Assembly: GCA_965215375.1 (NCBI GenBank)
Contig: CBDCDO010000001.1
Location: 893,567 to 957,566 of the forward strand
Source of the DNA: Dehalococcoidia bacterium
GTDB lineage: Bacteria > Chloroflexota > Dehalococcoidia > Bin125
DNA: 64,000 nt
Direction of reading: 5' to 3'
Shown here one piece after another: positions 20,398-46,648 of the stretch; within the stretch, counting starts at the first letter, position 1; each line of letters starts with the position of its first letter. The notes under the pieces were generated by a model that ran no database searches, was not told where the DNA came from, and saw nothing but the letters and a program-made list of their open reading frames with translations. Position numbers and translations under genes: made by a program.

Positions 20398-20459
20398 CCA
20401 TCATGCGAACCATCGTGCCAACATCGGCGCCCACCGGCGCCCACCGGCGGCGAGCATTA

Positions 20460-20486: not shown

Positions 20487-20517
20487 GCAATGTTAAGCGA
20501 AAGGCCGCCTACTCACC

Positions 20518-21432: not shown

Positions 21433-21585
21433 AAGTCGTCACCTCTCCACCCCACTCTATTCCGTCCCACCCCACCCGAACCCAAACACCCATCACTCCA
21501 GCCTCATCTCCCACAGTCACTCCCGCCCCGACACCGCCGTCATTCTCGACGCCCAAAATCCGTCATACCCGCGCTCCGCCGGAGA

Positions 21586-21768: not shown

Positions 21769-21866
21769 CTCCGCAGGCGGGAATCCATCCATGACAGCGT
21801 CACTGCGCCAACCAAAGTCTCGTCACGACCTACTCACAGCCATAGACACGAGACCAGAGGCACTCC

Positions 21867-24903: not shown

Positions 24904-24936
24904 TCTGTCCGATATCGTTGACATAGAGATCACTGA

Positions 24937-25022
24937 GCCGGGATGGCGGAATTGGCAGACGCGGCGGACTTAAAATCCGCTGGCCTTAGGCCGTGTGGGT
25001 TCGAGCCCCTCTCCCGGTACCA
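24937..25022 (+). tRNA. tRNA-Leu (anticodon TAA), type II with long variable arm, CCA encoded
   Basis: GCCGGGA acceptor, anticodon loop CTTAAAA, long extra arm TGGCCTTAGGCCGTG, GGTTCGAGCCC T-arm, 3' TCCCGGT-A-CCA. Confidence 0.85.
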
Positions 25023-25121
25023 AATCACCTGCTGCACAAAGCACTCGGAACGTCCTAGACTGCGCAACGTAACGGCGCGCCTACGCCAATGTCATGCGCT
25101 GTGCCCAGAAAGGATGCCCCG

Positions 25122-26207
25122 ATGAAAGCTGCAGTCTTCCACGGACCAAACCAAGACCTCACGATCGAAGACGTCGACGTTTCCAAACCCGGCCCGCGAG
25201 AGGTGCTCGTCAAGACCGCCGCTTCGGGCGTCTGCCACTCCGACCTCCACTTCGTCGAGGGACTCTACCCATTCCAGGCGCCTGGCATCCTCGGACACGA
25301 AGCCGCAGGCGTCGTCGAGGAAGTCGGCGATCTCGTTCAGCAGTTCAAAGCTGGCGACCACGTGATCATGTGCCTCTCCGTCTTCTGCGGCAACTGCTCC
25401 TACTGCCTCAGCGGCCGACCCGCCCTCTGCCGAAGCCCAGAGACCCAGCGCCGCCCCGACGAAGACCCGCGCCTCTCCTGGAACGGCAACCCAGTCGCCC
25501 AGTTCGCCAACCTCTCGACCTACGCCGAGTACACACTCGTCCACGAGAACGCGCTCGTCTACGTTGACGACGAAATGCCGCTCGAGCAAGCAGCCCTAAT
25601 CGGTTGCGGCGTGATGACCGGCGCCGGCGCCGCGCTCAACACCGCCAAGGTCCACCACGGCAGCACCGTCGCCGTCTTCGGAGCCGGTGGCGTCGGACTC
25701 TCCGCGATCCAAGGTGCCCGAATCGCTGGCGCAAAGCAGATCATCGCCGTCGACCTCCACGAGCACAAGCTCGCCCTCGCCCGCGAGCTCGGCGCCACTC
25801 ACTCGGTCGACGCCTCCACAGGAGACCCCGTCGCCCAAATCCGCGACATGACCGAGGGTGAAGGCGTCGACTTCTCCTTCGAGGCGATCGGCCTCAAGAC
25901 CGTCGCCGAGCAGTGCTTCGCCGCAATCAAGCGCGGCGGCGTCGCCACAATCATCGGCATGGTCCCGCTCGGACAGAAACTCGAAATCCCCGCTCACGAA
26001 CTCCTTTCCGAAAAGGTGCTCCAGGGCTCCAGCATGGGCAGCAACCGCTTCCGCACCGACATGCCCAACCTGGTCGAGTACTACCGACAGGGCCGTCTCA
26101 TGCTCGACGAAATGGTCACCATCACCGCACCGCTCGAGGACATCAACGAAGCCTTCCGAGCCATGAAAGCCGGAGAAGTCGCCCGAACCGTCCTCACCAG
26201 CTTCTAA
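25122..26207 (+). CDS. zinc-dependent alcohol dehydrogenase (MDR family)
   Basis: MKAAVFHGPNQDL...GVCHSDLH...GHEAAGVVEEVG...CGNCSYCLSGRPALC...VFGAGGVGLSA. Confidence 0.85.
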   Translation: MKAAVFHGPNQDLTIEDVDVSKPGPREVLVKTAASGVCHSDLHFVEGLYPFQAPGILGHEAAGVVEEVGDLVQQFKAGDHVIMCLSVFCGNCSYCLSGRPALCRSPETQRRPDEDPRLSWNGNPVAQFANLSTYAEYTLVHENALVYVDDEMPLEQAALIGCGVMTGAGAALNTAKVHHGSTVAVFGAGGVGLSAIQGARIAGAKQIIAVDLHEHKLALARELGATHSVDASTGDPVAQIRDMTEGEGVDFSFEAIGLKTVAEQCFAAIKRGGVATIIGMVPLGQKLEIPAHELLSEKVLQGSSMGSNRFRTDMPNLVEYYRQGRLMLDEMVTITAPLEDINEAFRAMKAGEVARTVLTSF

Positions 26208-26250
26208 ACCCTCTCGTCCCAGCGAGCAAGCCAAGTCAAAACACCTCAAA

Positions 26251-26270
26251 GCCCCCGCAAAAGCGGGGGC
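26251..26270 (+). terminator. possible terminator stem-loop after the alcohol dehydrogenase gene (no U-tract)
   Basis: gcccccgc-aaaa-gcgggggc perfect 8-bp GC stem. Confidence 0.25.
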
Positions 26271-26465
26271 CCGCTCGCCGAAACGATCCCGCGCCCAAAC
26301 CACAAGCCAAACCCGCGCCTTCCGCGGGTACCTCGCCGATCCCAGCACCATCAGTCGACACGACCGCCAAGAACCAGATCAACGAAAATCGAGCGACCTC
26401 CAACACCCCCAACAAACGATCCCCAAGTTGGAGCCGAGCAAGATGTTCGCTACGCTAAAGCCAAC

Positions 26466-26555
26466 GGAGGGGTGGCCGAGCGGACGAAGGCGGCGGTCTT
26501 GAAAACCGTTAGGCGTGCAAGCGTCTCGGGGGTTCGAATCCCTCCCCCTCCGCCA
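26466..26555 (+). tRNA. tRNA-Ser (anticodon TGA), type II, CCA encoded
   Basis: GGAGGGG acceptor, anticodon loop CTTGAAA, long variable arm, GGTTCGAATCC T-arm, 3' CCCCTCC-G-CCA. Confidence 0.85.
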
Positions 26556-26558
26556 GAC

Positions 26559-27191
26559 CTACGAACCCGTCGTCAGCTCACGAGCCACCGACAGCAACGC
26601 TTCCAGCGCCGTCGGATTCGGCAACGCCGCACCGTACTGATGCACCGCCACCCGCATCCATTTGCCCTGCGGCACAATCTCAAACTGACCGCTCGACCCT
26701 TCTCGCAACAGACCGAGCACCCGCCGATTGACCCGATCATTCCGATCCAGCCGACGCGCCGCCTCAACCGCTGCGCTGTCCGTAGCGTCTGACGCCTGCC
26801 ACTCAAACGTCCGCACCGGACCGAGCTCCTGCTCCGACCGCGACGGCATCGCTCGGAGCGCCGCTCCCCAATCGGCCGACCAGTCCTCGCCCAGCTTCTC
26901 CCGCTCCAACAGCAAATGAGCGCCCACCGCCCGCAACCGACCGCTGTGCGCGGCTCCCTGACCCTCAATCCGACTCAGCAGCGCATATTCAATTTCAGCA
27001 TCCGATACATCCACGGCGGCGACCAGCCGCGCCCCGCCCACAACCACACCCGAGCGCGACAACTCCCGAAACGTCTCCTCCGACGCCGCAGTCGCCGGCA
27101 CCGAATACCGACCCAGCGAGTCAATCAGCGACTCCGTCGCCGCACGATCCGCCCCTCGTCGCAGTCTTCGCCTCAAGCGTCGCAATATCAT
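26559..27191 (-). CDS. hypothetical protein (210 aa)
   Basis: ORF with non-skewed composition; no motif recognised. Ends 4 nt after tRNA-Ser. Confidence 0.45.
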   Translation of the reverse strand: MILRRLRRRLRRGADRAATESLIDSLGRYSVPATAASEETFRELSRSGVVVGGARLVAAVDVSDAEIEYALLSRIEGQGAAHSGRLRAVGAHLLLEREKLGEDWSADWGAALRAMPSRSEQELGPVRTFEWQASDATDSAAVEAARRLDRNDRVNRRVLGLLREGSSGQFEIVPQGKWMRVAVHQYGAALPNPTALEALLSVARELTTGS

Positions 27192-27223
27192 GCAGCAAAT
27201 CTACACCGTCTCAGGAGGCGAAC

Positions 27224-27625
27224 ATGCTCGTCGTCATGCGCAGATTCTGGATCCAAAAGGACTCGTTCGACGAGTTCGAACGACTCAGCAGAGAGGAAAT
27301 CTGGCCGCCGATCGAAGCCGCCGGTGCCCGCATACTCGGCATGTTCCGTGCCGACGAACCTCATCCCAACGACGAGGTGACCGAGCCCTGTGACATGGTC
27401 GTCCTGCTCACCCAATACGTCGACCGTGACCACTGGCACGCCACCCGAGCTCGCCAAGACACCTGGCGAGGACCAGAAGACGTCCGCCAGAAGCTCGCCA
27501 CCGGCGGACGAGCCCGTCACCAACTCGTCCTAACCACACATCCCACCTTCACCGAACCCGTCCACGTCAAGGTCGGAGGCCCCTTCTTCACCTGGAAAGA
27601 AGAACCCATGGGAACCGTCGAATAA
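27224..27625 (+). CDS. NIPSNAP / Dabb-like alpha+beta barrel protein
   Basis: 133 aa with EFERLSREEIWPPIEAAGARILGMF..., the pattern of the ferredoxin-like NIPSNAP family. Weak call. Confidence 0.45.
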   Translation: MLVVMRRFWIQKDSFDEFERLSREEIWPPIEAAGARILGMFRADEPHPNDEVTEPCDMVVLLTQYVDRDHWHATRARQDTWRGPEDVRQKLATGGRARHQLVLTTHPTFTEPVHVKVGGPFFTWKEEPMGTVE

Positions 27626-27673
27626 CCGCCACCCACACTGCCTCCCCAGTTCCGTAACTCCCGCGCCGCGCGC

Positions 27674-27795
27674 GTGAATCTCGATCCACCCAAGACGCCG
27701 TCACCTCACCCATTCACTTCGACGCGCTGCGCCAGTGAATCTCGACCCGTCCGCGACGTTCGTTATGTCACCCAATCACTTCGACGCCCGCAGCG
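27674..27795. repeat. imperfect ~58-bp tandem duplication (GTGAATCTCGAyCC...TCACCCAwTCACTTCGACGC), x2
   Basis: Two adjacent units at 27674-27731 and 27735-27795. The second overlaps the 3' end of the methyltransferase gene. Confidence 0.5.
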
Positions 27796-28621
27796 AGAAC
27801 ATCAGCGGCAATCGACGATCCGCCAACCCCAACACCTCAGGCATCCTCCACACTCCCGACTCCGTCTCCACTAGCCACGGCAATGCCGGATACACCGTCC
27901 AATCCTGCTCGTGCAGGAACTCAATCGTCAGACCAGCATCAATCAACGCGCTGACAATCTCGCCCAAACTGTGATTCCACTCATACGTCACCTGATGCTC
28001 GAAGGTCGCCGACGAGTCCGCGTAGTCCTCGTCGCCACTCCACCGCAGCGGCTCGACCGTCTCAAAGTACGGATAGCGCAGGCGCAACTCACCCGGCGAC
28101 GCTTCATCGTCCAACGTGAACGCGATCGGATGCACATCGCGCACGTACAACACGCCGCCGTCCTTGAGGAATCCAGCGCAAACCTCGGCCCAACCCGCGA
28201 TATCAGGAAGCCAACACAGAGCCCCCAAGTTCACATAGACCACATCAAACGTCGCCAGCCGCTCCGCCAGCACCCCCGGCGACGCATACAACTCTGACTC
28301 CACAAACTCCGCGCGCCCCGCAGACAGTCCCAGTTCCTCCGCGATACGCCGCGCCGTCGCAATCGCTGACGGTGCAAAATCGACACCCACGACACGCGCG
28401 CCCGACCGAGCCCACGACAGTGTGTCGAGCCCGAAGTGACACTGCAGATGCAGCAGCGACTTCCCCGACACCTCGCCGACCTCATCCAGGTCGAGCTGGA
28501 GCAGCGTCGACTCGCCCGCCAGAAAGCGGTCGACCCCATAGAACTCGGACGACGCGTGCACCGAGACCGACTCGTCCCAGCGCCGTCGATTCGCCTCCAG
28601 ATACTCGTCAAGCGATGACAC
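27776..28621 (-). CDS. class I SAM-dependent methyltransferase
   Basis: Motif I VVGVDFAPSAIATARRIAEELG and motif II/post-I DVVYVNLGALCWL. Confidence 0.7.
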   Translation of the reverse strand: MSSLDEYLEANRRRWDESVSVHASSEFYGVDRFLAGESTLLQLDLDEVGEVSGKSLLHLQCHFGLDTLSWARSGARVVGVDFAPSAIATARRIAEELGLSAGRAEFVESELYASPGVLAERLATFDVVYVNLGALCWLPDIAGWAEVCAGFLKDGGVLYVRDVHPIAFTLDDEASPGELRLRYPYFETVEPLRWSGDEDYADSSATFEHQVTYEWNHSLGEIVSALIDAGLTIEFLHEQDWTVYPALPWLVETESGVWRMPEVLGLADRRLPLMFSLRASK

Positions 28622-29870
28622 GAGAGCCCATTCGCGATGCCAGCGCCTCAGGCAAGATCACCGACCCGTCCGCTTGCTGTCCGTTCTCCAGCAACGCCGC
28701 AATCGTGCGCGGCAATGCCAACCCCGACCCGTTCAGCGTGTGGACGAACTGCGTACCCTTCCGCTCAGCCGGTCGATAGCGGACATTCGCCCGTCGAGCC
28801 TGGAAATCGGTGCAGTTCGACACACTCGAGACCTCAAGCCACTCCTGAGCGCCAGGCGCCCAAATCTCGAGGTCATAGCTCACCGACGCGTTGAACCCAA
28901 TGTCACCGCTACAGATCTGCAGCACCCGATACTCCAGCTCCAACCCCTGCAACAACGCCTCCGCCGAGGCCAACATCTCACCCAACGCCGACTCAGAAGT
29001 CTCCGGCGTGGTGAACTGATACATCTCCACTTTCTCAAACTGATGTACCCGCTTGATTCCGCGCACATCCCGACCAGCGCTCGTCTTCTCCCGACGGAAA
29101 CACGGCGTATGCGCCGCATAGCGGATCGGCAGGTCGGCCTCATCCAGGATTTCGTCCGCATGCATGTTGGTCAGCGGCACCTCAGCCGTTGGGACGAAGT
29201 AGTAGTCCTCCTCCTCATCCCGATACAGATTGTCGCGGAACTTGGGCAACTGCCCCGAGGCGCGCATCGCGTCCTCACGGACCATCGCCGGGACATAGCA
29301 CTCCTCGTACCCCGACGCCCCGTGCGCATCGAGAAACCAGCCGATCAACGCTCGCTGCAGCCGTGCACCAGCCCCTCGAAGCGCATACATCCTCGATCCC
29401 GACATCGCCGCCGCGCGCTCAATGTCGATAATCCCCAGCCGCTCACCGATCTCCCAATGCGGCATCGGCTCGAAGTCAAACACCCGACGCTCACCCCAGC
29501 TCCGCACGACGACGTTGTCTTCTTCATCCACGCCGTCGGGCGTGATCTCGCCAACGACATTCGGAATCTCCTGCAACAACCCATCCAGCGACGCCTCAAG
29601 CTCCCGCAATCGCTCCTCAAGCGCATCAATCCGCGACGCCGACGCACGCTGCTCAGCGATCAGCCGCTGGCGCTCCTCATTGTCCTTCGCCTTGCCGATC
29701 GCACGCCCAGCCGAGTTCCGCGCCGCGCGAAGCTCTTCCAGTTCGACCAGCACCGAGCGCCGCTCCTCATCGACCCCAATCGCCTCATCCAACGGTGCCA
29801 CAGCACCGCGACGAGCGAGCGAGCGTCGGATCACCTCTGGCCGCTCACGAATCATCTGCGCAGATATCAC
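28608..29870 (-). CDS. serS: serine--tRNA ligase
   Basis: N-terminal coiled-coil arm plus class II core (RREKTSAGRD...FEKVEMYQF...GSGLALPRTIAALLEN). Confidence 0.9.
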   Translation of the reverse strand: MISAQMIRERPEVIRRSLARRGAVAPLDEAIGVDEERRSVLVELEELRAARNSAGRAIGKAKDNEERQRLIAEQRASASRIDALEERLRELEASLDGLLQEIPNVVGEITPDGVDEEDNVVVRSWGERRVFDFEPMPHWEIGERLGIIDIERAAAMSGSRMYALRGAGARLQRALIGWFLDAHGASGYEECYVPAMVREDAMRASGQLPKFRDNLYRDEEEDYYFVPTAEVPLTNMHADEILDEADLPIRYAAHTPCFRREKTSAGRDVRGIKRVHQFEKVEMYQFTTPETSESALGEMLASAEALLQGLELEYRVLQICSGDIGFNASVSYDLEIWAPGAQEWLEVSSVSNCTDFQARRANVRYRPAERKGTQFVHTLNGSGLALPRTIAALLENGQQADGSVILPEALASRMGSRVIA

Positions 29871-29875
29871 GCTGT

Positions 29876-30415
29876 CTACTCCTCACACCGCGCGACATGG
29901 TCAATCGCTGCAATTCCCAAAATCCGGACATCCTCCGACACCGGCGCCGAGACACCAGCAAACTCCATCGACACATTCTCCGACAGCTCACGCCGAGTCA
30001 CCCAACGCCACGACTCACCGGGCGCCGGCGGCCGACCTTCTGCGCTCGGACGGGAAAAATAGATCATATCGATGTGATGATGAGCGTCCTCGCCGCCGAA
30101 CGAGCGAATCGGCTCAACCATGATCGTCGCCGGCGCGACCAACTGCGGTGGATCACGATAATCAAACCGCTCCGAAGTCGGCAAAATCTCAACCACGATG
30201 CCCGTTTCCTCCAACGCCTCACGGATCGCCGCCTGCGGCGGATCCTCATTAGGCTCAATATGACCGCCCGGAGGAAGCCACAGACCGACTTTACGATGCC
30301 AATGCAACAGTGTCGCACCATCCGTTGCGACAAATGTCGATACTGTGAAGTGTCGGATATCGTCCACGGGGTTTACCGTATCGCACATGGAACTCATCTC
30401 TGCCCATAACGGCAT
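29876..30415 (-). CDS. NUDIX hydrolase
   Basis: Nudix box GGHIEPNEDPPQAAIREALEETG. The track ORF extends to 30463; an internal Met start avoids overlap with the divergent gene. Confidence 0.65.
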   Translation of the reverse strand: MPLWAEMSSMCDTVNPVDDIRHFTVSTFVATDGATLLHWHRKVGLWLPPGGHIEPNEDPPQAAIREALEETGIVVEILPTSERFDYRDPPQLVAPATIMVEPIRSFGGEDAHHHIDMIYFSRPSAEGRPPAPGESWRWVTRRELSENVSMEFAGVSAPVSEDVRILGIAAIDHVARCEE

Positions 30416-31139
30416 GTCCCCAACATGGTCGCCCGACGGCCAGTCAATCGCATTCCTCAGCAATCGCGCAGAAGGCTGGGACCTCTACACCATGCCCGTC
30501 GACGGCGGCGAGGCAACCCGCCTCACCCGAGGCGCCACCGCCGACGACCCAGCCTGGTCGCCCGACGGCAACTGGATTGCTGTCGGGCGCAATCATGGGA
30601 TCGATTTGATCTCGCCCGACGCCAGCGAACACACAATTGTGATCGAAGATGCGAGCGATCCCACTTGGTCACCAATCGGAGACCTCGCATTCACCCGCAA
30701 CCAAGATCTCTACACGCTCGACTTCGAAGGCGAACCAGAACTCCAATTGCCAGACGCGCAGCAACCGCATTGGTCCCCTGACGGCAAGTCCATCGCCTTC
30801 GTCCGACACGGAATCTGGGTGCTCGACCTCGAGGTCGGTCGGGCATTTCAGCGAACCGAAAATCCAGCCGACGAGTCACCCTGCATCTGCGCCGATGGCG
30901 ACATTCTGTTCATCCGCAATGCGCAACTGATGATCCTCCACGAAGATGGATCAATGAGCGACCTTTCACACCTGCCCTCGCCAGCCGGCGCGCCAGCGGT
31001 GCATCCACATGACCTCGACACGGTCGCCTACCACCTGCACGACGGCGGCAACTGGGATATCGTCACCGCCTCCCTCGAGCGTGGCGACGCCAAAAGGCTC
31101 ACCCGCGCAACTTGGACCTCCTGGAACGCTCGCCTGTAA
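30387..31139 (+). CDS. TolB-like PD40/WD40 beta-propeller repeat protein
   Basis: Repeated WSPDG units (SPTWSPDGQSIAF, DPAWSPDGNWIAV, DPTWSPIGDLAF, QPHWSPDGKSIAF). Confidence 0.65.
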   Translation: MELISAHNGMSPTWSPDGQSIAFLSNRAEGWDLYTMPVDGGEATRLTRGATADDPAWSPDGNWIAVGRNHGIDLISPDASEHTIVIEDASDPTWSPIGDLAFTRNQDLYTLDFEGEPELQLPDAQQPHWSPDGKSIAFVRHGIWVLDLEVGRAFQRTENPADESPCICADGDILFIRNAQLMILHEDGSMSDLSHLPSPAGAPAVHPHDLDTVAYHLHDGGNWDIVTASLERGDAKRLTRATWTSWNARL

Positions 31140-31173
31140 CCGACTGTCAACTGCGATTCAGTATCGTGATCCC

Positions 31174-31647
31174 ATGTCGCATTTCCTCCTCCGCCAAGCC
31201 GCCAAGGTGATCGCCGGCTCCGCCGGACCCCAGATCGCCTCACAAATCGCCCAACGACTGACCACACCCGCAACCCGCGACGAAGATCGTCGGAAATTCC
31301 TCATCTGGCTCGCCGGACCATTCAAGCAATCGAACCCGCAGGCATACGATCAACTCTGGCCACGCCTCCACAACAACGACGAAGTGATCAACGCCCTCAC
31401 CGGCGTGTTCCTCGAGCTCCAGTCCGCAGGCCCAAGTGCGACGACCAACTGGTTCAGCCAACTCGCGGAATCCGATCAACAACACTTCGACGAGCTCATC
31501 CTCGCAATCCAGCCAAAACAACCCGACACCCAGCGGCTCATGAAGCAAGCCTCCAAAGAGGCGGAATCAACCTTCCGAGGCGCCGCACGATTCCTCGGTC
31601 GCACCTATCGCAAAACGAGTCGTGAAGCACGCAACAGAAAGCGCTGA
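31174..31647 (+). CDS. hypothetical protein (157 aa)
   Basis: Internal Met start MSHFLLRQAAK...; no recognised motif. Confidence 0.4.
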   Translation: MSHFLLRQAAKVIAGSAGPQIASQIAQRLTTPATRDEDRRKFLIWLAGPFKQSNPQAYDQLWPRLHNNDEVINALTGVFLELQSAGPSATTNWFSQLAESDQQHFDELILAIQPKQPDTQRLMKQASKEAESTFRGAARFLGRTYRKTSREARNRKR

Positions 31648-31651
31648 CCAG

Positions 31652-32146
31652 ATGCCTATGATCGACCACATCACCGACGAGCAGACCGACCTGATCAACG
31701 GCGCGAAAGTCTTCTTCGTCGCCTCCGCCGACCCCACCATGGGCGACGGACCAGACGGCCAAGGCGCCGTCAACCTCTCCCCCAAAGGCGCCGCCGACCT
31801 CCAAATCATCGACCGCCACACCCTCGCCTACTTCGACTATCGAGGCAGCGGAAACGAAACCGCCCGACACACCGCCGCCGGCGGACCGATCACGGTGATG
31901 GTCACCTCATTCGACGAAGACGCCGCCATCGTCCGCCTCTACGGTCACGCCGTTGCCAAGCCGCTCGAAGAATCCGTCCTCGCCGAGCAAGCAGAAAAGC
32001 TCCGCGCCGTCGAAATGCCCACACCCGAGCGCCAAGTCATCGAAATCAGCGTCGAGAAAACCCAAACCTCCTGCGGCTACGGAGTACCCGTCTACAAGTA
32101 CCAAGGAGACCGGTCCCAAAAGCAAAGAGGCCGCCGCTACAAGTAA
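31652..32146 (+). CDS. pyridoxamine 5'-phosphate oxidase-family FMN/F420-binding protein
   Basis: KVFFVASADPTMGDGPDGQGAVNLSPKG...IVRLYGHA split-barrel pattern. Confidence 0.6.
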   Translation: MPMIDHITDEQTDLINGAKVFFVASADPTMGDGPDGQGAVNLSPKGAADLQIIDRHTLAYFDYRGSGNETARHTAAGGPITVMVTSFDEDAAIVRLYGHAVAKPLEESVLAEQAEKLRAVEMPTPERQVIEISVEKTQTSCGYGVPVYKYQGDRSQKQRGRRYK

Positions 32147-32149
32147 CCC

Positions 32150-32390
32150 AAGCCCCCTCCCTCCTCTGATCCCCACTCCCAGGGAGTAGGCTACCAACTC
32201 CCATTCTGATCCCCTCTCCCTCTGGGAGGGGGTTAGGGTGAGGCTCCCCCTTCCCCAAGGAAGAGCAACACCACCTCCACCCCACTCCCAAAGAGAGGAG
32301 CACCACCAGTGATCCCACTCTCCGAGGAAGGGGAACACCGTTTCCGATCCCCTCTCCCAGAGGGAGAGGGGTAGGCCCCCTACCCAATCA
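32150..32390. repeat. cluster of REP-like palindromic units (CCCCTCTCCC...GGGAGAGGGG family) in a convergent intergenic region
   Basis: Units at ~32196-32245 (CATTCTGATCCCCTCTCCCTCTGGGAGGGGGTTAGGGTGAGG) and ~32340-32385. The first unit is near-identical to 53235-53285. Confidence 0.55.
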
Positions 32391-33216
32391 ACCCAGCCAA
32401 CCGATCCAGCTCCGGAACCACCTCATCCGCCCCAGCATGAGGCAGACGGAAGATGCACCGATCCACACCCATCCGCTCATACTCCGCGATCCCATCCTCG
32501 ACCGCGCCGAACACATTGATCGAGATCTCGTCAAAGTCCCGACCAGCCTCGTGCGCCCGCGACTGGATGTCCTGAATCCCCCGCTCGACGAACCCAGGCG
32601 CCGTGATGTTCGGCAGCCAACCGTCCGCCCAGTCAACCACTCGCTGACGAGCCCACTTGCTACCCGCGCCGATCAACACCGGCGGATGCGGCGTCTGCGT
32701 CGGCTTGGGAATCACCTCGGTCAACGGAATGTCCACGAACTCCGAGTGGAACTCGGACTCCTCCGTTGTCCACATCTCCTTCATCGCCGCAATCCGCTCC
32801 GTCGTGACCTTCCAGCGATCCTGGTAATTCACACCGAGCGGCTCCATCTCTTCGGCCAGCCAGCCCGCACCGATCCCAAAATCGAACCGACCTCCGGAAA
32901 TCATGTCCAGCGACGCAATCTGCTTGGCCAACGCGATCGGCTCATGCTCGGTCACCAGACAAATCCCAGTGCCCAGCCGAATCTCCGAGGTCGCACCCGC
33001 CGCCGCAGCCAGCGCCACAAACGGATCATGAATCCGCCGATACTCAATCGGCAATGAACCGTCCTCGCTGCGCGGGAACCGTGTCTCCCGATTGACCGGC
33101 ATGTGGACATGCTCGGGCACAAAGAGCGACTCGAACCCGCGCTCTTCCGCCGCGACCGCAAGCTCCACAGGGTCCATGGCCATGTCCGTCGCGAAAATAA
33201 ACACACCAAACTTCAT
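32380..33216 (-). CDS. LLM-class (luciferase-like) F420/flavin-dependent oxidoreductase
   Basis: MKFGVFIFATDMAMDPVELAVAAEERGFESLFVPEHVHMP...GIGAGW pattern typical of the TIM-barrel LLM family. Confidence 0.8.
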   Translation of the reverse strand: MKFGVFIFATDMAMDPVELAVAAEERGFESLFVPEHVHMPVNRETRFPRSEDGSLPIEYRRIHDPFVALAAAAGATSEIRLGTGICLVTEHEPIALAKQIASLDMISGGRFDFGIGAGWLAEEMEPLGVNYQDRWKVTTERIAAMKEMWTTEESEFHSEFVDIPLTEVIPKPTQTPHPPVLIGAGSKWARQRVVDWADGWLPNITAPGFVERGIQDIQSRAHEAGRDFDEISINVFGAVEDGIAEYERMGVDRCIFRLPHAGADEVVPELDRLAGLIG

Positions 33217-33285
33217 CGTCAGAACCTTTCTGTCTGTTCAGATACCCACAGCCTACGACCTCCTGCCGACGTCTACCCTGCCAGA

Positions 33286-34230
33286 ATGCAACATCACACG
33301 CTCAACCCGCCGACGCCGCCAAATCGCGTCCCGATGGTGCTCGACACCGACACCGCCAATGAAATCGACGACCAGTTCGCCGTCGTCCACGCGCTCCTGT
33401 CCCAAGACCGACTCCAACTCGAAGCAATCTACGCCGTCCCCTTCGCCCGACTCAGCGCTCACCAGGGCCATTCCCCCGCCGCCGGCGTCGCCGAGTCCGA
33501 AGCGGAAATCCACCGACTGCTCGATCGCCTCAATGTCGGCGACCGCAGCCGCGTCTTCCGCGGTGCCGACCAGTTCCTCTCCGACGACAAGCACGCGGTC
33601 CAGAACGCCGCCTCAGACGACCTCATCCGACGAGCCCTCGAGCCTCGCGATGAACCGCTCTGGGTCGCCGCAATCGGTGCCCTCACGAACGTCGCTTCAG
33701 CGCTCCACGAAGCACCGGAAATCGCCGCGCGAATCCGCATCGTCTGGCTCGGCGGACAAGCCCAACACGCGGTCGACGCCCGAGAGTTCAACCTCTACCA
33801 AGACCCCATCGCCGCCCGCATCGTCTTCGATAGCGGCGCCCCACTCGTGCACATCCCCTGCTACGGAGCCGCGTCGCACCTGCTCACCACCACCGCCGAG
33901 CTCGATGCCTACGTTCGCCCCCAAGGCGACATCGGCGAGTACCTGGCGGACATCTTCCGCGATCACAACGACCAGCACCCCGGCCGCTCGAAAGAGATCT
34001 GGGACCTCTCCGCCACGGGTTACCTGATCGACGACAACTGGGTCCCCAAGCGCAGCCTCGAGCGCCCCTCACTTTCTCAGGATATGCGCTGGATCCGCCA
34101 ACCCGACGACACTCCGTCAGCACCCTTCGCCGAAGCCCACTACATCCGCCGAGACCCCATTTTCCAAGACCTCTTCGCCAAACTCGGCGAGTTTCAATCC
34201 GGGAACCGCAACGCAGGATTCGCAACCTAA
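33286..34230 (+). CDS. nucleoside hydrolase (inosine-uridine preferring family)
   Basis: N-terminal VLDTDTANEIDDQFAV (DxDxxxDD Ca-binding motif). The track ORF starts earlier (33103) and overlaps the LLM gene on the other strand. Confidence 0.75.
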   Translation: MQHHTLNPPTPPNRVPMVLDTDTANEIDDQFAVVHALLSQDRLQLEAIYAVPFARLSAHQGHSPAAGVAESEAEIHRLLDRLNVGDRSRVFRGADQFLSDDKHAVQNAASDDLIRRALEPRDEPLWVAAIGALTNVASALHEAPEIAARIRIVWLGGQAQHAVDAREFNLYQDPIAARIVFDSGAPLVHIPCYGAASHLLTTTAELDAYVRPQGDIGEYLADIFRDHNDQHPGRSKEIWDLSATGYLIDDNWVPKRSLERPSLSQDMRWIRQPDDTPSAPFAEAHYIRRDPIFQDLFAKLGEFQSGNRNAGFAT

Positions 34231-34236
34231 CGCCGC

Positions 34237-35295
34237 TCAGAGCCCCACCGTCACCGGACGCGTCATCCCGCCGAATGTCGGCATCCAGCACGAATGCTTG
34301 CCCGGCCCTCCAGCGACGATGATGTGAATCTCCTCAGGCCGATCCGAGATCGGCAGCCACTCATCCGAGCTATGCGTCGGCAACACGCCGCCCGCCATAC
34401 GGATGTTCACCGACTCCAGAAATTCCTCGCTCAGCTTGCTCGCCGGATACCGAGCGTTCTCCCACAGATACTCCTGCACCGACTCTCGCGTCCAACCCTC
34501 CGACGCGACCGTCTCTGCGTGTTCTGGACCAAACGCCAGCACAGGTTCGCCCTTGCCCAGAATGTTGTTCGATCCTGCCTGACCCATCGCCCCAGCGACC
34601 GTCTGCAGGATCCCCGCCGCCGTGTTACTGCCGTGATCCTGAATGTTGTGCGGACCCTCGCACGCCCAGGTCGTCACACAGCTGTCCTCTGCATTGAGCC
34701 CGCGCGTCGTCTGGAACGGCGGCCACGGCGACGCATCCTCACGCTCGGTTGCGCAAAATGCGAACTTGGCCGGCGTGCCCTGCGTCGCGCGATCGCCCCG
34801 ACCAGGTGTCGCTCCGGCGACATTCAGTTGCACCAGTCGCACCGCTCGCCCGATCGTCGCGTTGGACGGAAATGTCGGCCCGAAACAGCCCGATCCGCCG
34901 TGAATGCCAGCCGCTCGCGCCGCCGGACCCGACGCCAGGACAAACACCGCGCACGGATGCGTCGTCGCATTGATTCCGTCGAGATTGAACGGCGGCTGCG
35001 CAATCGCTTCGACCGCCGCCAGCACGATCGGGAACTGCTGCGGCCGACAACCCGCCATCACCGCGTTAATCGCGACCGCCTGCACCGTCGCCTCGCCTTG
35101 ACGAGGCGACAACACACCCAACACCTCCATCGGATCGCGACCCGCAGCCTCGACCATCGCCGCAACGCGCTCCGCCGTCGGCGGAATCAGCGGCAGGCCG
35201 TCGGACCACCCACGACGTTGGCACTCCTGCGAGAACTCGAACGCGTCGGCCGGCAGCGAGAATCGCTCGGCCTCTCGACCTCGAGCCGCCGTCAC
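34237..35295 (-). CDS. conserved hypothetical protein (352 aa), translationally coupled to the upstream selenoprotein gene
   Basis: GTG start overlaps the TGA stop of the upstream gene (GTGA at 35292-35295). Balanced composition; contains GWSDGLPLIPPT...AINAVMAGCRPQQFPIVLAAVEAIA. No family recognised. Confidence 0.55.
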   Translation of the reverse strand: MTAARGREAERFSLPADAFEFSQECQRRGWSDGLPLIPPTAERVAAMVEAAGRDPMEVLGVLSPRQGEATVQAVAINAVMAGCRPQQFPIVLAAVEAIAQPPFNLDGINATTHPCAVFVLASGPAARAAGIHGGSGCFGPTFPSNATIGRAVRLVQLNVAGATPGRGDRATQGTPAKFAFCATEREDASPWPPFQTTRGLNAEDSCVTTWACEGPHNIQDHGSNTAAGILQTVAGAMGQAGSNNILGKGEPVLAFGPEHAETVASEGWTRESVQEYLWENARYPASKLSEEFLESVNIRMAGGVLPTHSSDEWLPISDRPEEIHIIVAGGPGKHSCWMPTFGGMTRPVTVGL

Positions 35296-35837
35296 GATGT
35301 CCCCGCCTCACCAAGCAGCGCCGCCTCAAGACGATCAACTACACCATCATCGACCCGTCCGCGCACGCGCTCAGGTCGCAGCCCACCAAGCGGATGCGGC
35401 ACAATCAAGCGGTCCAACTCGGGCAACCCGCGCTGCTCCGCTTCGAGTTGCAGCAAATCCGTAAACGCCGACGTCCCAACCGTCACCGTCGGAATTCCCA
35501 TCTCTTCAAACAGCACTGAGGCGTGGACACTCCACGTCGTGCAGCTTCCTCAATCGCAGCTCCCAATGAGCAGGAAATCGGCCCCGTTCCGCAGCGCGTC
35601 AATCGTCGAGTCTGACGGCGGCCCACCAACCGGCTTGCTGCCAACGACCACGTCGCCCAACCGATGCCGTTCGCCCAACCGCTCGACCATCGTTTCCATC
35701 AGCAAACGGGCATTCGCCTTCCGATTCTCCAGAATCCCAGGTCGAAGCCCGTCCAACGACGTCGGTCGAGGCGCCGCCGTCGCCTCATGAATCGCCACAT
35801 GAGCCAACGGACTCAAAATCTCAATCGTCTCCGGCAT
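35292..35837 (-). CDS. UGSC-type selenoprotein with in-frame TGA (Sec) at 35550-35552
   Basis: Track ORFs 35550..35885 and 35292..35516 are in the same frame (offset 258 nt) and separated only by TGA. Read-through gives ...ADFLLIGSCD-U-GSCTTWSVHASVLFEEMGIPTV... A GC-rich hairpin sits 11 nt after the UGA. Best RBS is GGAGG-6 nt-ATG at 35837. Confidence 0.6.
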
Positions 35838-35872
35838 CGCAATCCTCCAGTCACCTGCCATCTCCAAACAGC

Positions 35873-37537
35873 CTAAGGCTTCCAATCCTCCGGCTCGACG
35901 ACGATGATCTCGATGTACCCCAACACACGACGTTCCTCCAGGGTGGCGCCCGGGTCACCTTGGGTACCGGCTGGGCATCGTGTCGTCACCTCAACTAGCA
36001 CCCGTCCAAGCTGGGTAGGAGTGCCCCGCAACAGCATCTCGGCTCCGATGATGCCGCCATCATCGTCGTATGTCGTGATACTCGTAGGCGCAATCAACCC
36101 ATTCCAAGCTTCAACGAGTTGATCTTCATTCGACAGATTACCACTGAAGTAGTGACCCTGTTGCTGGTAAGATTCGTCCGGGCTCGGCCGCCCTTGGATC
36201 CAACAAAAGGCATCCGAAAACTCTTGTGTTGATGTCAACACTACCCGATCGTACCAGTGGTACGGACGACCAAGTTCCACGAACACCGTACGGATCAGGT
36301 CATCCGGCCCCACAGTTGTCCTGTCTGACGGATCCGACGGTAAATTGGCAAACAGTTGCTTTTGTATCTGGACTGTGCGCTCCGAAGGTGGTTCGAACGA
36401 TATTGGATTCCCGGCATAGACGAAGCGAAAGTTGGCATTCCGACGCGCTTCAGCGGACCGAAAGTGAGGAATGTAGCGTTCCCAAACCGCCAACATCGTC
36501 GCGACAAACTCCGGACCGAAAAACTCATCAGGATCGGTGATAGCCCGTACGTAGTCTACCAGTAAATCAGCAAATGTGTCTGATTGATCAGCTTCGATAA
36601 CTCGACCCTCTACCGGAATCATCGCTCGCGACTCAACGCCATTGATGAACACTGGAACGTCCGATGCTCGATCTCCAAACAGGTCAACGTTGATCAAGTC
36701 GAACAACCGATTGATCTGATACCAATACGTCCCCCAATCAGGGCGCCAAGTCGATTCCACATCGACGACGTAGTCGGGCAGGAAGTAGTCATTGACATGC
36801 CTGGCCCAGTCCACAGCGTCGCCAAAGTGGTGACCATCAACGCCAGTTAGAGGCCCTGAAGTAATGGACAGCCCCAGCCGAGGTTTGTAGTATATTACCG
36901 ACGAGTTCCAAATGCCGTGTCCTGTGGTTTCTAGGAATAGCACGGTACGAGGTGTATCATCACCTCTATTTCCCGTGCCGTCGTAGCCAGTGTGATACCA
37001 GCCTTGTTCACCATGGATGATCACTTTTCGGTCAAGAGCGTAGATGATAAAATCAGGATCAGTGACCCGCAGGTCTGTTGCGAAAAGCTCTGCTCTTGAT
37101 AGGCACCCTGGTGTTCCAGATGAAATACCAAGCGCATCGAGCTCAATCTGAAACTCCGCAGAGCAGTCGGCGAGGAAGCTCATGCGATCTTGATACACGT
37201 CGATGGTGAGGAATGACCACTGATTTGGTCGACCTTGCCAGAGCAGTGTCACCTCTCCAAGATCGAGCAATGCACCATGCTCGAAACGTTGACCTGGGAT
37301 GGCGAAGCCTTCACCGCGCTCCGCGGCGTCGGCGAAACAGTCCGTAATCGCATCTCGTGATGCGCTGCCAGGGATTTCTTCGGCATACTTCAGCCATTGT
37401 GTTCCGTTATAGCACCATGCTGGGAGGTCGGCGCGATTTGCCTCAACTGTGGCGTTCCAAGCGAAGAGGCTTGCGCTGATCGCGAACGCGAGGATGGCGA
37501 ATCCAACCCAAGGTCGATGTGCGCGCCTACGTCTCAT
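35873..37537 (-). CDS. secreted / membrane-anchored hypothetical protein (~555 aa), lower GC than its neighbours
   Basis: N-terminal MRRRRAHRPWVGFAILAFAISASLFAWNA signal/anchor, many Trp/Tyr, no recognised catalytic motif. Local GC is ~52% versus ~65% in the flanks. The track ORF extends to 37579. Confidence 0.55.
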   Translation of the reverse strand: MRRRRAHRPWVGFAILAFAISASLFAWNATVEANRADLPAWCYNGTQWLKYAEEIPGSASRDAITDCFADAAERGEGFAIPGQRFEHGALLDLGEVTLLWQGRPNQWSFLTIDVYQDRMSFLADCSAEFQIELDALGISSGTPGCLSRAELFATDLRVTDPDFIIYALDRKVIIHGEQGWYHTGYDGTGNRGDDTPRTVLFLETTGHGIWNSSVIYYKPRLGLSITSGPLTGVDGHHFGDAVDWARHVNDYFLPDYVVDVESTWRPDWGTYWYQINRLFDLINVDLFGDRASDVPVFINGVESRAMIPVEGRVIEADQSDTFADLLVDYVRAITDPDEFFGPEFVATMLAVWERYIPHFRSAEARRNANFRFVYAGNPISFEPPSERTVQIQKQLFANLPSDPSDRTTVGPDDLIRTVFVELGRPYHWYDRVVLTSTQEFSDAFCWIQGRPSPDESYQQQGHYFSGNLSNEDQLVEAWNGLIAPTSITTYDDDGGIIGAEMLLRGTPTQLGRVLVEVTTRCPAGTQGDPGATLEERRVLGYIEIIVVEPEDWKP

Positions 37538-37562
37538 ATAGTGCACAAGTGGACAAGCATCC

Positions 37563-37814
37563 TTACTCCAGATACCCATAGACGAGCTCCCGTAACTCGT
37601 CCATGTCCGGGAACCGACCCATCGCCGCCTTGCTAAACACGAGTTCGCCGTTCACCGACCACTCGAACAGGCCCTTCGTGTCCGGCACCAACCGCACGTC
37701 GCTGACGAGATGCTGGATGTCCGCCATCAGCTCGCCAAGCATCCACGACGTGCGCGGCCAGTACCCACAGTCGGCGCAGTAGACCACCTCTATCGCGATT
37801 TGCGCTTCTGACAT
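37563..37814 (-). CDS. Rdx-family (SelW/SelT/SelH-like) thioredoxin-fold protein, Cys form (CxxC)
   Basis: IAIEVVYCADCGYWPRTSWMLGELM matches the I-x-YC-x-x-C-x-W-x-R-x-x-W pattern of the Rdx family, where selenoprotein homologues carry CxxU. 83 aa. Confidence 0.65.
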   Translation of the reverse strand: MSEAQIAIEVVYCADCGYWPRTSWMLGELMADIQHLVSDVRLVPDTKGLFEWSVNGELVFSKAAMGRFPDMDELRELVYGYLE

Positions 37815-43437: not shown

Positions 43438-44033
43438 TCCGCGAACGGAGCATCAATACCCGGCGGCATCGCCACGTTGAATGTGTTCAGACCGATCGAC
43501 ACCAACGCGTAGTAACCCATCACCGAGGCGACCTCAAAGACGCCGCTCTCGCCCAAAATGTCATTGAGCGCGCTATACGTCTCATCCGACACACGCTGGT
43601 TCTCAATCAGTTCGCGACCAAACTGATAGACCGCCTGCTGCCGCTCATCGCCGAAGTACGGTTGCTCACCATCGCGGATCGCGTCGATCGCACCCTCCGA
43701 CACACCAGCGTTAACCGCCATCCTCGCGTGCGCCCAAAACTCGAAGTTCGCGCGCCAGTGACCGCCCATCGTGCAAATCGCGACCTCCAACAAGTCACTC
43801 GGAAGCGACGTCTGATAGCGAATTGCGGCACCCAGCTTCTGGATCGCATCGCCGAGTTCAGGCGACAGGAACAGCGCGTTGAACGGACCGATCAGCGCGC
43901 CATCGGCACCAGCCAATCCACCATGCTCGCGCTCAGGGTTTCCTCGCGGGCCGGTCGTGATGTTCTCCCAGAGCACTCGCTGATCATCGTTCAGCGAATC
44001 AAATGTTTGTGGTCCAAGTCGCGGCATGGTCAT
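43434..44033 (-). CDS. carboxymuconolactone decarboxylase (CMD/AhpD-like) family protein
   Basis: All-alpha 199-aa protein with the AICTMGGHWRANFEFWAH pattern. Confidence 0.65.
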   Translation of the reverse strand: MTMPRLGPQTFDSLNDDQRVLWENITTGPRGNPEREHGGLAGADGALIGPFNALFLSPELGDAIQKLGAAIRYQTSLPSDLLEVAICTMGGHWRANFEFWAHARMAVNAGVSEGAIDAIRDGEQPYFGDERQQAVYQFGRELIENQRVSDETYSALNDILGESGVFEVASVMGYYALVSIGLNTFNVAMPPGIDAPFAD

Positions 44034-46648
44034 TCCTCCTGTGTTCGAGCGGCTACTGTCCGACCGTGCAGATGCCTCGGCAGCAGGTGCTCTGGATAGG
44101 CAGTGCCGACCAGGCCCTTCGCCACCAGCTCCGCCAGCTCAGCCTCCGAATAGCCGAGCAGGTCGCGATAGATCTCCTCATTATGTTCACCCAGCTTGGC
44201 CGGCGGCGTCCGCAGCTGGTTCGGCGTCCGACCCATCGAGAAACTCAGTCCCGGATATCGATGCGTGCCGACATCGTCCATCGTCAGCGGCTCAAAGAAC
44301 CCGACCTCTCGCAAATGCCGATCCGACAATGCGTCAAACGGATCATTGAGCGGCGCCGCGCAAATCCCGGCCGCCTGCAACTTGTGGAACAGATCCTCCT
44401 TGTTCCACACCCGCGTCTCTTGAGCAATCAACTCGTCAAGCACGACCGCATTCTGCCTCCGAGACTCCGCGTGCGAGAACCGCGTGTCGAGCGGCGCATG
44501 CGCTAACTCCGACTGCACCGATGCCTCACCAGGACCCGCCGCTAGCGCGTCGCACAACGTCACAAACTCAGCGTCAGAGCTGATATCGATTGCAATCCAC
44601 TGGTCCTCACCCCGACACGGATACACACCATACGGTGCGTGATACTTGTGACTGTTCCCCTGCGACGGCGGATTCACACCATTCATCGAGTACTCAAACA
44701 AGTACTCAGCGAGCGTCGGGATGAACCCCTCGTTCAGTGGCATTTCGATCAGCTGACCCTCACCCGTCCGCTCGCGATGACGCAATGCCATCATCACCGC
44801 TACCGCTCCTTGCACTCCCGACATACCATCGCTCGCGAGCGTCTCGCCAATCCCTTCAGGACTGCGATCAGGATATCCACGCAAATGCGTATGGCCGACC
44901 ATCGCCTCGACATGCAAGCCAAACGCCCGATACGACGAGTACGGACCTTCAAGCCCAAACGCCGGCATCCGTAACATAATCAATCGCGGATTCACCGCTC
45001 GTAACTCATCCCAACCGATGCCCGCCTTGTCGATCGTCGTCGGAACATTGTTCTCGACCAGGACATCGCACTGTTCAATCAAGCGGAAGAACGCCGCTTT
45101 CCCCTCCGGCGACATGATGTCGCAAGTCATCGATCGCTTATTCCGCGCATGAGAGTTAAACGACGCAGACCGATTCCACGGATCATCACCCAGCTCCGAG
45201 TCGGGATACTGCGGCTGCACTCCAATCGCCGCGCCGCGATCCATCGTCTCCTTGCTCTGAGCGTTCTCAACCCCCCGTGTATACGGCTGAATCCGATTGA
45301 CCGGCTCCACATTGACCACATCAGCGCCCCACTCGCCCAAGAGCTGCGCCACATGCGGACCCGCCCAGACCACCGTCACCGCCGCGACTCGAAGGCCCTC
45401 AAGTGGCAAATGCAGCGCACTCATCGGACCGTCAGGCAGCGGATGACGCAGATCCTCTATCGGATCAGGCGGCGTGAAGTCAAGCACGACGCGTGAATGC
45501 TCACCCAGTCGAGGCGAACGCTTCGGTCGCGGCGGCTGCGACTCACTCATTCGGAACGGGAACCCCGGATACGGCAGAGCCGTCCCATGCCAATGCGCAA
45601 TCTGATGCCACCAGTCGCGAGCCGCGAGCTGCGGATCATCCAGCACATCAGCGACTGTCATCACGGCGCCCGCAAGCAACCGGTTCGACTGAGCCTCCGC
45701 CACCGCGTCGATTTTGTTCATCCCCGACAGGTACGACTCCACGGCCTCATCGACGCGAGCGCCAAACCCCGATCCCGGCCGCGGACCTCGCAGAAAATCC
45801 TCATCCTCGAGCAGATCCTCCCGACCGATCCAGCGCATCATCCGCGGCATCCGCGATCCGGTGCCGACAATGTTCACAAACCCATCGGCGCAGGGATACA
45901 TCCCAAATCCAACCTGCCGACGTCGCGGCTGCGCCCGCCCCGGCGCAATCCCGCTGTACTCAGCCGCGACGAGCTGAATCGTCCGTCGATCCCGACACGC
46001 CACTTGGCATCGATAGATCGAGATGTCAATCCAATCCCCAGCCTGCGCATCGCTCTCTACCCGCTTCAGCGCCAGCAGGATCGCAAACGCCGCCGTCGCT
46101 CCCGCGTGATAGCTCGCATAGTGCCCAGCCAACTTGATCGGCTCACGATCCGCCGCGCCCGTCGCATGCAACGGACCACCGATCGCCTGCATCGTCAACT
46201 CCGAGCCGCGGTAATCCCGATACGGCCCGCTCTGTCCATACGCCGTAATCGAGCACATGATCAGCTTGGCATTGATCGAATGAAGCACACTCCAGCCCCA
46301 GCCTGCCTCCTGCGCCTCGCCCGGCCTCAGATCCTCAATCACTACATCCACCATCTGAGCCAGCCGACGCACCGTCGCCGCGCCATCGTCCGTCTGCGGG
46401 TCGAGCACGATCGACTGCTTGTTCGTGTTCAGGTGCATGAACAGCCCTGACGCCTCAGGATTCTGCTCTCCACCAGGAAACGGACCAAACGTTCGCGACG
46501 GGTCGCCCCCCCGAGGTTCCGCCTTGATCACCCGCGCGCCATAGTCGGCGAGCAGCTTCGTCGCATAGGGACCCGCGACCACGGTGGTCAAGTCCAGAAC
46601 CGTGATGCCTTCCAGCGGACCAGCCATGTGCGCTCCCGTTGCCGTCAA
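44030..46648 (-). CDS. tandem-fused family III CoA-transferase (two CaiB/BaiF-like modules, 872 aa)
   Basis: Both halves start with the family signature: GITVLDLTTVVAGPYATKLLADYGARVIKAEP, and again LRVAAVTVVWAGPHVAQLLGEWGADVVNVEP. Confidence 0.8.
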   Translation of the reverse strand: MTATGAHMAGPLEGITVLDLTTVVAGPYATKLLADYGARVIKAEPRGGDPSRTFGPFPGGEQNPEASGLFMHLNTNKQSIVLDPQTDDGAATVRRLAQMVDVVIEDLRPGEAQEAGWGWSVLHSINAKLIMCSITAYGQSGPYRDYRGSELTMQAIGGPLHATGAADREPIKLAGHYASYHAGATAAFAILLALKRVESDAQAGDWIDISIYRCQVACRDRRTIQLVAAEYSGIAPGRAQPRRRQVGFGMYPCADGFVNIVGTGSRMPRMMRWIGREDLLEDEDFLRGPRPGSGFGARVDEAVESYLSGMNKIDAVAEAQSNRLLAGAVMTVADVLDDPQLAARDWWHQIAHWHGTALPYPGFPFRMSESQPPRPKRSPRLGEHSRVVLDFTPPDPIEDLRHPLPDGPMSALHLPLEGLRVAAVTVVWAGPHVAQLLGEWGADVVNVEPVNRIQPYTRGVENAQSKETMDRGAAIGVQPQYPDSELGDDPWNRSASFNSHARNKRSMTCDIMSPEGKAAFFRLIEQCDVLVENNVPTTIDKAGIGWDELRAVNPRLIMLRMPAFGLEGPYSSYRAFGLHVEAMVGHTHLRGYPDRSPEGIGETLASDGMSGVQGAVAVMMALRHRERTGEGQLIEMPLNEGFIPTLAEYLFEYSMNGVNPPSQGNSHKYHAPYGVYPCRGEDQWIAIDISSDAEFVTLCDALAAGPGEASVQSELAHAPLDTRFSHAESRRQNAVVLDELIAQETRVWNKEDLFHKLQAAGICAAPLNDPFDALSDRHLREVGFFEPLTMDDVGTHRYPGLSFSMGRTPNQLRTPPAKLGEHNEEIYRDLLGYSEAELAELVAKGLVGTAYPEHLLPRHLHGRTVAARTQEE

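Follow-up and report, generated by a model that had tools for sequence, protein, structure and literature searches.

The UGSC family of selenoproteins was described in 2007 as a family of unknown function (PMC1976440), with first reports from Hyphomonas neptunium, an Olavius symbiont metagenome and the Global Ocean Sampling (GOS) marine metagenomes (PMC1976440, PMC2398784). The GOS metagenomes contained 255 forms with selenocysteine (Sec) and 21 with cysteine (PMC2398784), 33 genes were found in 26 genomes of sequenced bacteria (PMC5029168), and the family was included in reviews from 2022 and 2026 (PMC9312934, PMC13188914). It is among the most abundant selenoprotein families of aquatic environments and is listed there too with function unknown (PMC2398784, PMC13188914). 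The GOS study reported that UGSC is fused to or associated with an uncharacterised 'Unknown_1' and offered a thioredoxin-like fold as a guess (PMC2398784). A second group of described systems, selenoprotein B of the Stickland-type reductases for glycine, sarcosine, betaine and D-proline (GrdB, GrdF, GrdH and PrdB, respectively), uses a UxxC motif (PMC9312934). In PrdB the Sec is residue 151; its selenol attacks D-proline that is bound to the pyruvoyl group of a second subunit, PrdA, and replacing the Sec by Cys (U151C) abolishes activity (PMC11229817). Here we analyse a gene in a stretch of 64,000 nucleotides, referred to below as the window, from the chromosome of a Dehalococcoidia bacterium (contig CBDCDO010000001.1). 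The gene, on the minus strand, is with high probability a single UGSC-family selenoprotein gene of 181 residues in which an in-frame UGA is read as Sec by means of a selenocysteine insertion sequence (SECIS) hairpin, and which is paired with a gene for a partner protein.

The list of open reading frames (ORFs) divides the locus into two minus-strand ORFs, 35550..35885 and 35292..35516. Examination of the sequence and its translation confirmed the initial annotation in that the two lie in one frame and are separated by the TGA at 35550-35552 alone. The edge of the second ORF at 35516 is merely the first GTG past the TGA, and coding runs on from the TGA without interruption. The window at 35292..35837 (minus strand) holds one gene, not two. 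The coding sequence comprises 181 codons including that for Sec96 and closes with a terminal TGA stop at 35292-35294. Its read-through product, ...NGADFLLIGSCD-U-GSCTTWSVHASVLFEEMGIPTVTVGTSAF..., contains the stretch LLIGSCD-U-GSCTTWSVHAS, so that the U-G-S-C motif falls exactly at the TGA, as had been claimed. The codons of this predicted redox motif are TGA GGA AGC TGC (35541..35552, minus strand), the first of them (35550..35552) being the proposed codon for Sec96. The start proposed earlier, a GGAGG placed 6 nt before an ATG at 35837 and giving ∼181 residues, also held. A Shine-Dalgarno-like GGAGG was read from the sequence at 35844..35848 (minus strand) with a 6-nt spacer to the ATG at 35835-35837, the start Met of the orthologues is this same Met, and the product has 181 residues. 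The orthologues are colinear with the window gene from Met1 through to the stop.

Membership of the UGSC family was examined with the read-through product, U being replaced by C. It matched Pfam PF24696 (UGSC) over residues 6-165, aligned with positions 1-162 of the 172 in the profile, and scored 140.1 bits where the cut-off is 25, which bears out the family identity suggested at first. When 117 members were aligned, no variation was seen at the four motif columns, C/U96, G97, S98 and C99. Homologues without selenium, which the initial annotation had described as carrying Cys at the column of the TGA, were indeed seen in the alignments; they read D-C-G-S-C and have TGC or TGT as the codon where the window gene has TGA. 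The window gene is thus like the documented UGSC family in its domain, in the U-G-S-C motif with Sec first, in the existence of CGSC homologues and in its length (∼175-215 residues in the family). It differs in the nearly invariant SECIS core of its clade and in an upstream gene for an Rdx protein, both described below, neither of which the distant members sampled have. The window gene is a new member of an already known selenoprotein family.

The closest relatives occur in metagenome-assembled genomes (MAGs) of Dehalococcoidia and Chloroflexota, several of them sponge-associated bins, and the orthologues come from many projects. The TGA was retained in all 23 codon-aligned orthologues, with every one of the 11 genome loci and of the Sec-type metagenome loci among them, down to a protein identity of ∼52%. 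A TGA at the motif column was found additionally in two further loci, L046 and L049. Conservation across the TGA had been named as a check at the outset, and the protein proved to be conserved on both sides of it in all of the orthologues. For the closest pair the ratio of nonsynonymous to synonymous substitutions (dN/dS) was ∼0.03 before the TGA and ∼0.055 after it. By this comparison purifying selection is the same on the two halves of the gene, after the TGA and before it. Elsewhere in the window TGA behaves as a stop: it ends 13 of the 26 genes with domain support, and none of the 26 carries it in frame. Given that TGA is an ordinary stop and never in frame in these supported genes, UGA is not reassigned in this genome. 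A scan of the window for other genes with an in-frame TGA, filtered on G+C content at third codon positions, gave nothing convincing, though the filter missed the UGSC gene too.

These data bear on one alternative, namely that the TGA is a nonsense mutation or the miscall of a Cys codon and that no full-length protein is made. A TGA is one base away from TGC or TGT, homologues with Cys exist, and gene callers take a TGA as a stop, all of which would be compatible with a pseudogene or a sequencing error. However, the TGA recurs in independent orthologues from different genomes, metagenomes and projects (23/23), and in further fragments besides; the half downstream of it shows strong purifying selection in frame; and the hairpin described below is conserved at synonymous sites. 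The search with the N-terminal fragment argues in the same direction. It was run against 1.84 billion cluster representatives and the best 150 matches were examined. Among these, 116 were stubs of at most 135 residues ending ...D right before the motif, which is not expected of random error, and 9 were full-length proteins with D-C-G-S/T-C. A pseudogene or sequencing error is therefore extremely unlikely. The conserved TGA, the selection downstream of it, the TGC or TGT of the Cys homologues and the ordinary use of TGA as a stop were together taken to rule out a pseudogene, an error of sequencing and an altered genetic code.

The prediction that gene finders would split the locus was borne out by a near-identical contig of 3.33 Mb in ENA, which carries two called ORFs of 95 and 69 residues, both matching PF24696. 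Split calling of UGSC genes is thus a systematic annotation problem of which this locus is a clear case. It might be asked whether the split is real, so that an N-terminal polypeptide of 95 residues and a C-terminal one of ∼74-85 residues, with an initiation site of its own (for instance the GTG at 35516), assemble into one domain that has no Sec. Both halves are conserved, each matches PF24696, and an in-frame GTG lies 11 codons past the TGA. Against this, no ribosome-binding site precedes the GTG at 35516, and the 11 codons that lead from the TGA to this GTG, those for G-S-C among them, are in frame and invariant or highly conserved. The break would fall at the junction of strand b3 and helix a3, in the middle of a compact domain, and the invariant first residue of the motif would be lost. 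Full-length homologues with Cys at the column exist, and the synonymous constraint on the hairpin would have no explanation. Two separate polypeptides are accordingly very improbable.

The RNA following the UGA was compared with the published properties of bacterial SECIS elements, which are an apical loop of 3-9 nt, an upper stem of 4-16 bp, a G among the first two nucleotides of the loop, a distance of 16-37 nt from the UGA to the loop, and a minimum free energy (MFE) of -7.5 kcal/mol or lower (PMC13188914). The full predicted element, with lower stems, internal loops and upper hairpin, spans 35508..35547 (minus strand) in the MFE structure, and its MFE is -17 kcal/mol over 66 nt or -16.2 kcal/mol over 48 nt. 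Its core, assigned on geometry and conservation, lies at 35522..35536 (minus strand) and consists of a 6-bp stem, CGUGGA/UCCACG, closed by a GUG apical loop (35528-35530). The string CGUGGA-GUG-UCCACG occurs once only in the window. The apical loop begins 19 nt past the UGA. The hairpin reported in the initial annotation is therefore present and it sits at the usual location of a bacterial SECIS, the 19-nt spacing being within the published range. The distance of 11 nt from the UGA given for it did not hold, since the outer GCAC stem is at +11 when the U is counted as +1, that is, after a gap of 7 nt. The geometry, a 3-nt loop of GUG with G then U, a 6-bp stem and a spacing of 19 nt, was satisfied in 25/25 distinct Sec-type sequences, the stem being of 5 bp in one of them (L022).

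For this hairpin the telling comparison was that of synonymous sites. Across the 11 orthologues there are 143 degenerate codons at which the amino acid is conserved, and just 8 of these codons never vary. Seven of the eight are consecutive over the hairpin core and its flanks, TGC ACG ACG (TGG) AGT GTC CAC GCC, and a seven-codon run of this kind was reproduced in none of 100,000 shuffles. All 24 distinct Sec-type sequences share the core with little or no change. In most of the Cys forms a similar peptide is specified by different codons, and the hairpin is absent.

A second gene in the same run provides a parallel case. Upstream of UGSC, at 37563..37814 (minus strand), lies a gene for an 83-residue Rdx/SelW-like protein (Pfam PF10262, 64 bits) with the motif Y-C-A-D-C-G, a CxxC pair. 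In the Chloroflexota clade, 36 of the 50 loci with room for it have Rdx before UGSC, either next to it or with one inserted gene between. In five of the loci (L014, L015, L016, L031 and L039) the second Cys of Rdx is a TGA, giving CxxU, the known Sec position of the family. These CxxU forms have a hairpin of their own, CCACC-UGGAU-GGUGG, 21 nt downstream of the TGA, and the Cys forms of Rdx are without it. A TGA at CxxU in Rdx together with the TGA in UGSC indicates that in related organisms UGA is decoded as Sec in two neighbouring but unrelated genes. Rdx resembles UGSC in being a small redox protein with a Sec/Cys switch encoded in the same operon-like run. It belongs to a different family, the Sec being second of the pair (CxxU) rather than first (UxxC), and the Rdx of the window is a Cys form. 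The Rdx fold is thioredoxin-like and so unlike that of UGSC.

In the window Rdx and UGSC are separated by an ORF of 568 residues (35873..37579, minus strand) with no Pfam match, a G+C content of 0.55 against ∼0.63 around it, and an N-terminus resembling a hydrophobic signal or anchor. At the same insertion site L005, L008, L009 and L012 have a gene that is only ∼30% identical, and in L002, L003, L004, L007 and L013 the site is empty. The ORF has the look of a rapidly evolving gene at a constant point of insertion.

A number of observations weigh against the decoding of the UGA as Sec through this hairpin and have to be set beside the above. The contiguous 6-bp core alone has a free energy of -6.5 kcal/mol, weaker than -7.5 kcal/mol, and the published value is reached only with the lower stem, which is not conserved among the orthologues. 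The fold energy is ordinary for GC-rich sequence (z = -0.33 against dinucleotide shuffles) and does not separate Sec from Cys forms (means of -13.4 and -14.9 kcal/mol, respectively). No covarying pairs were found: 5 of the 9 pairs never vary, and the one G-C to G-U change is without a compensatory change. The hairpin encodes the conserved peptide TTWSVH, and part of its conservation must therefore be at the level of the protein. A Cys form, L027 (with TGC; the same is true of L029), carries a hairpin just as good at the corresponding position. The equivalog model of NCBIfam, NF041046 ("UGSC family (seleno)protein"), scored the window protein at 106.3 bits with C, or 98.7 bits with X, at the Sec position, below its cut-off of 125. 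Finally, neither selA, selB, selD nor tRNA-Sec was found in the 64 kb of the window or in the 445 kb of loci retrieved besides, by Pfam searches of the large ORFs, tRNA scans and SelD and SelB motif scans, a result that is expected for so small a sample.

Of the two properties that the initial annotation had proposed for checking in the hairpin, conservation was found at synonymous sites, while stability beyond that of shuffled sequences was not. Stability was consequently dropped as evidence, being no better than in shuffles or in the same region of the Cys homologues. A search of Rfam for SECIS or any other family returned nothing at the gathering threshold or at E values up to 10, which is uninformative for bacterial SECIS elements. 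The L027 hairpin reads CCGCCUGGA-CGG-UCCGGGCGG, with -15.7 kcal/mol and the same 19-nt spacing as the Sec forms, and could have outlived a former SECIS or be a structure pre-adapted for one. Hairpins beside Cys codons in [NiFeSe] hydrogenases have been discussed as SECIS relics or pre-adaptations (PMC13582414). As for the NF041046 scores, close relatives gave 116-123 bits, the Dehalococcoidia/Chloroflexota clade as a whole 106-123 bits, and UGSC members named as such by NCBI 129-157 bits. With the clade falling just short of the threshold, the automatic NCBI name would not be given. Split calls and scores under the NCBIfam cut-off make it likely that these genes stay split or 'hypothetical' in MAGs. 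The part of the chromosome sampled in the window is an ordinary one, with genes for complex I, Der, CdaA, ComEC and SerRS among others, and the use of Sec in Chloroflexi has been published (PMC1794560 Table 2; PMC13582414).

That the machinery was not observed in the sequence covered favours a reading of the UGA without selenium, whether by a near-cognate tRNA for Trp or Cys, by Cys carried on tRNA(Sec), or by local or global reassignment of UGA. The folding and assembly of PrdB U151C likewise indicate that Cys is structurally tolerated at such a site (PMC11229817). A global reassignment conflicts with TGA being the commonest stop of the window and in frame in 0/26 genes. More generally, the column is known to hold Sec in the UGSC family (PMC2398784, PMC13188914), a conserved hairpin of SECIS geometry follows the TGA, and the adjacent SelW-like gene of relatives has a TGA at a known Sec site. 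Were Cys the residue wanted, a one-base change to TGC would supply it, as in the Cys clades. Read-through without selenium is thus very improbable, and the comparative evidence suggests that the TGA at 35550-35552 is very probably decoded as Sec. The hairpin would recruit SelB with Sec-tRNA(Sec) to the ribosome, where the UGA would then be read as Sec.

Immediately downstream of UGSC is the gene for the partner, a protein of 352 residues and unknown function (34237..35295, minus strand). Its GTG start overlaps the UGSC stop in the sequence GTGA, which suggests that the two genes are translationally coupled. A homologue of the partner adjoins UGSC in 46 of the 47 loci with enough sequence, an obligate pairing that extends to Natrinema, a haloarchaeon, and to Sphingobium and Conexibacter. 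Fusions of UGSC to the partner were found in P0112, P0091 and L046, the last being a single frame of ∼535 codons that contains the TGA and the same hairpin. The 'Unknown_1' of the GOS study is probably the 352-residue partner domain, the two being matched by description and not by sequence.

More than 7,500 proteins make up the partner family. The partner and ten diverse homologues matched no Pfam model and no NCBIfam model except for the UGSC domain of the fusions. The AlphaFold2 model of the partner has a predicted local distance difference test (pLDDT) score of 91 and no convincing relative in the PDB. A Toblerone-fold hydrolase returned by Foldseek with E of only ∼0.01 and a template modelling (TM) score of 0.21 may be regarded as a weak lead. 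The residues Cys83 and Cys181 of the partner are invariant.

The structure of UGSC was modelled with AlphaFold2 on a Cys homologue, P0001, which is 51% identical to the window protein, using an alignment of 116 sequences. The model (pLDDT 95.5, predicted TM score 0.89) has five beta-alpha units, with the motif where strand b3 ends and helix a3 begins. By this model the UGSC product is predicted to be a five-unit beta/alpha domain of flavodoxin/Rossmann-like type, and the predicted position of U96-G-S-C99, at the strand 3 end and helix 3 N-terminus, is typical for a redox-active pair. The thioredoxin fold guessed at for UGSC was rejected, the P0001 model being flavodoxin/Rossmann-like.

Weak but recurrent similarity to selenoprotein B emerged when 116 UGSC members were scanned against NCBIfam, whose models for this group are TIGR01917, TIGR01918, NF040794, NF040795 and TIGR04483. 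TIGR01917 (GrdB) was matched by 67 members, the best with E = 4.5e-7, and TIGR01918, the general model for selenoprotein B of glycine/betaine/sarcosine/D-proline reductase, by 29; GrdF, GrdH and PrdB were matched by 22, 11 and 10 members, respectively. The matches always lie over the motif region, UGSC residues ∼80-160 pairing with positions ∼331-406 of the 431 in the model or, for PrdB, with 133-171 of 238, a stretch within which Sec151 of PrdB falls. Sec-type UGSC orthologues reached E = 1e-4 and 1e-3. The link was seen only with the NCBIfam/TIGRFAM models, and Pfam GRDB showed no similarity to UGSC at E values up to 1. Scores of 10-30 bits against cut-offs of 65 (TIGR01918) or 300-800 bits (the equivalogs) mean that UGSC is not a member of these families. 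The pattern instead points to remote homology, and to an analogy in mechanism, between UGSC and the C-terminal, Sec-bearing region of GrdB, GrdF, GrdH and PrdB, matched by region and not by the Sec column by column.

The comparison with selenoprotein B has two sides. UGSC shares with it the UxxC motif, the weak similarity just described and an adjacent partner gene, each selenoprotein B working with a substrate-binding subunit from the neighbouring gene (PrdA in the case of PrdB; PMC11229817). On the other hand, GrdB is more than twice as large as UGSC, no similarity of the partner to the pyruvoyl proproteins GrdE and PrdA was seen, and the organisms that carry it are not amino-acid fermenters of the clostridial type. 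No genes for GrdA, PrdC or PrdH were present near UGSC in the loci examined.

These likenesses allow a chemistry to be sketched, with less confidence than attaches to the decoding. UGSC and the 352-residue partner would form a two-subunit reductase in which the selenolate at the N-terminus of the helix attacks a substrate held by the partner. Cys99 would resolve the adduct to give a selenenyl-sulfide, and this would be re-reduced by a thiol or selenol donor, plausibly Rdx. Extending this, it is a tentative and rather doubtful possibility that UGSC and its partner, preceded by Rdx here, are an unrecognised two-subunit selenol/thiol reductase sharing a common ancestor with the Sec domain of GrdB and PrdB and recruited to another substrate in marine, sponge-associated and soil heterotrophs and haloarchaea. 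Three points weigh against this part of the reading. The window protein alone gave no significant match to TIGR01917 (10.6 bits, E = 0.19, same region), the idea that the partner is a GrdE or PrdA was rejected for want of any similarity, and the function of UGSC is termed unknown in the literature (PMC13188914, PMC1976440). The partner, the flavodoxin-like fold, the similarity to GrdB and PrdB and the Rdx-UGSC-partner gene order narrow the search for the function of UGSC, and the culturable hosts of Cys forms, Sphingobium, Conexibacter and Natrinema, offer organisms for functional tests.

Genes that recur as neighbours of UGSC elsewhere encode acyl-CoA (coenzyme A) dehydrogenases, thiolases, CoA ligases, CoA transferases, enoyl-CoA hydratase and luciferase-like monooxygenases, and point loosely to the catabolism of organic acids or acyl-CoA. 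Individual loci show several arrangements. In L046 (1..8306) the Sec-containing UGSC-partner fusion stands amid six genes for CoA-transferases of family III. The window has a double CoA_transf_3 gene at 44030..46648 and an acyl-CoA dehydrogenase gene at 48237..49397, within ∼13 kb. In L052, from a Conexibacter sp., two tandem pairs with opposite internal order (partner-UGSC and UGSC-partner) occupy 4269..7619 and are followed by genes for an ADP-forming acyl-CoA synthetase, a thiolase-like protein, a DUF35-type protein and an AMP-binding ligase. The 565-residue fusion P0112 reads N-L-G-S-C in place of D-(U/C)-G-S-C, with Leu at the Sec/Cys column, and may be inactive, divergent or a sequence error. 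A database protein of 3,325 residues with 25 matched stretches, P0251, scored highly against the N-terminal fragment of UGSC and was set aside as spurious, being made of ∼25 exact copies of an unrelated 121-residue unit; probably it either arose in assembly or is a highly repetitive protein.

A scan for promoters and terminators over 34.0-40.2 kb of the window gave nothing above the shuffle expectation. Three further ORFs of the window had no Pfam match at E values up to 1e-5, namely 15132..16475 (plus strand, 447 residues), 51071..52735 (minus strand, 554 residues) and 54047..56155 (minus strand, 702 residues). The region at 54-56 kb has a lower G+C content, 0.58. The GC skew of the plus strand over 14000..34000 was strongly negative, from -0.19 to -0.27 per 2-kb segment; it was weaker outside this region and near zero at ∼54-58 and 62-64 kb.

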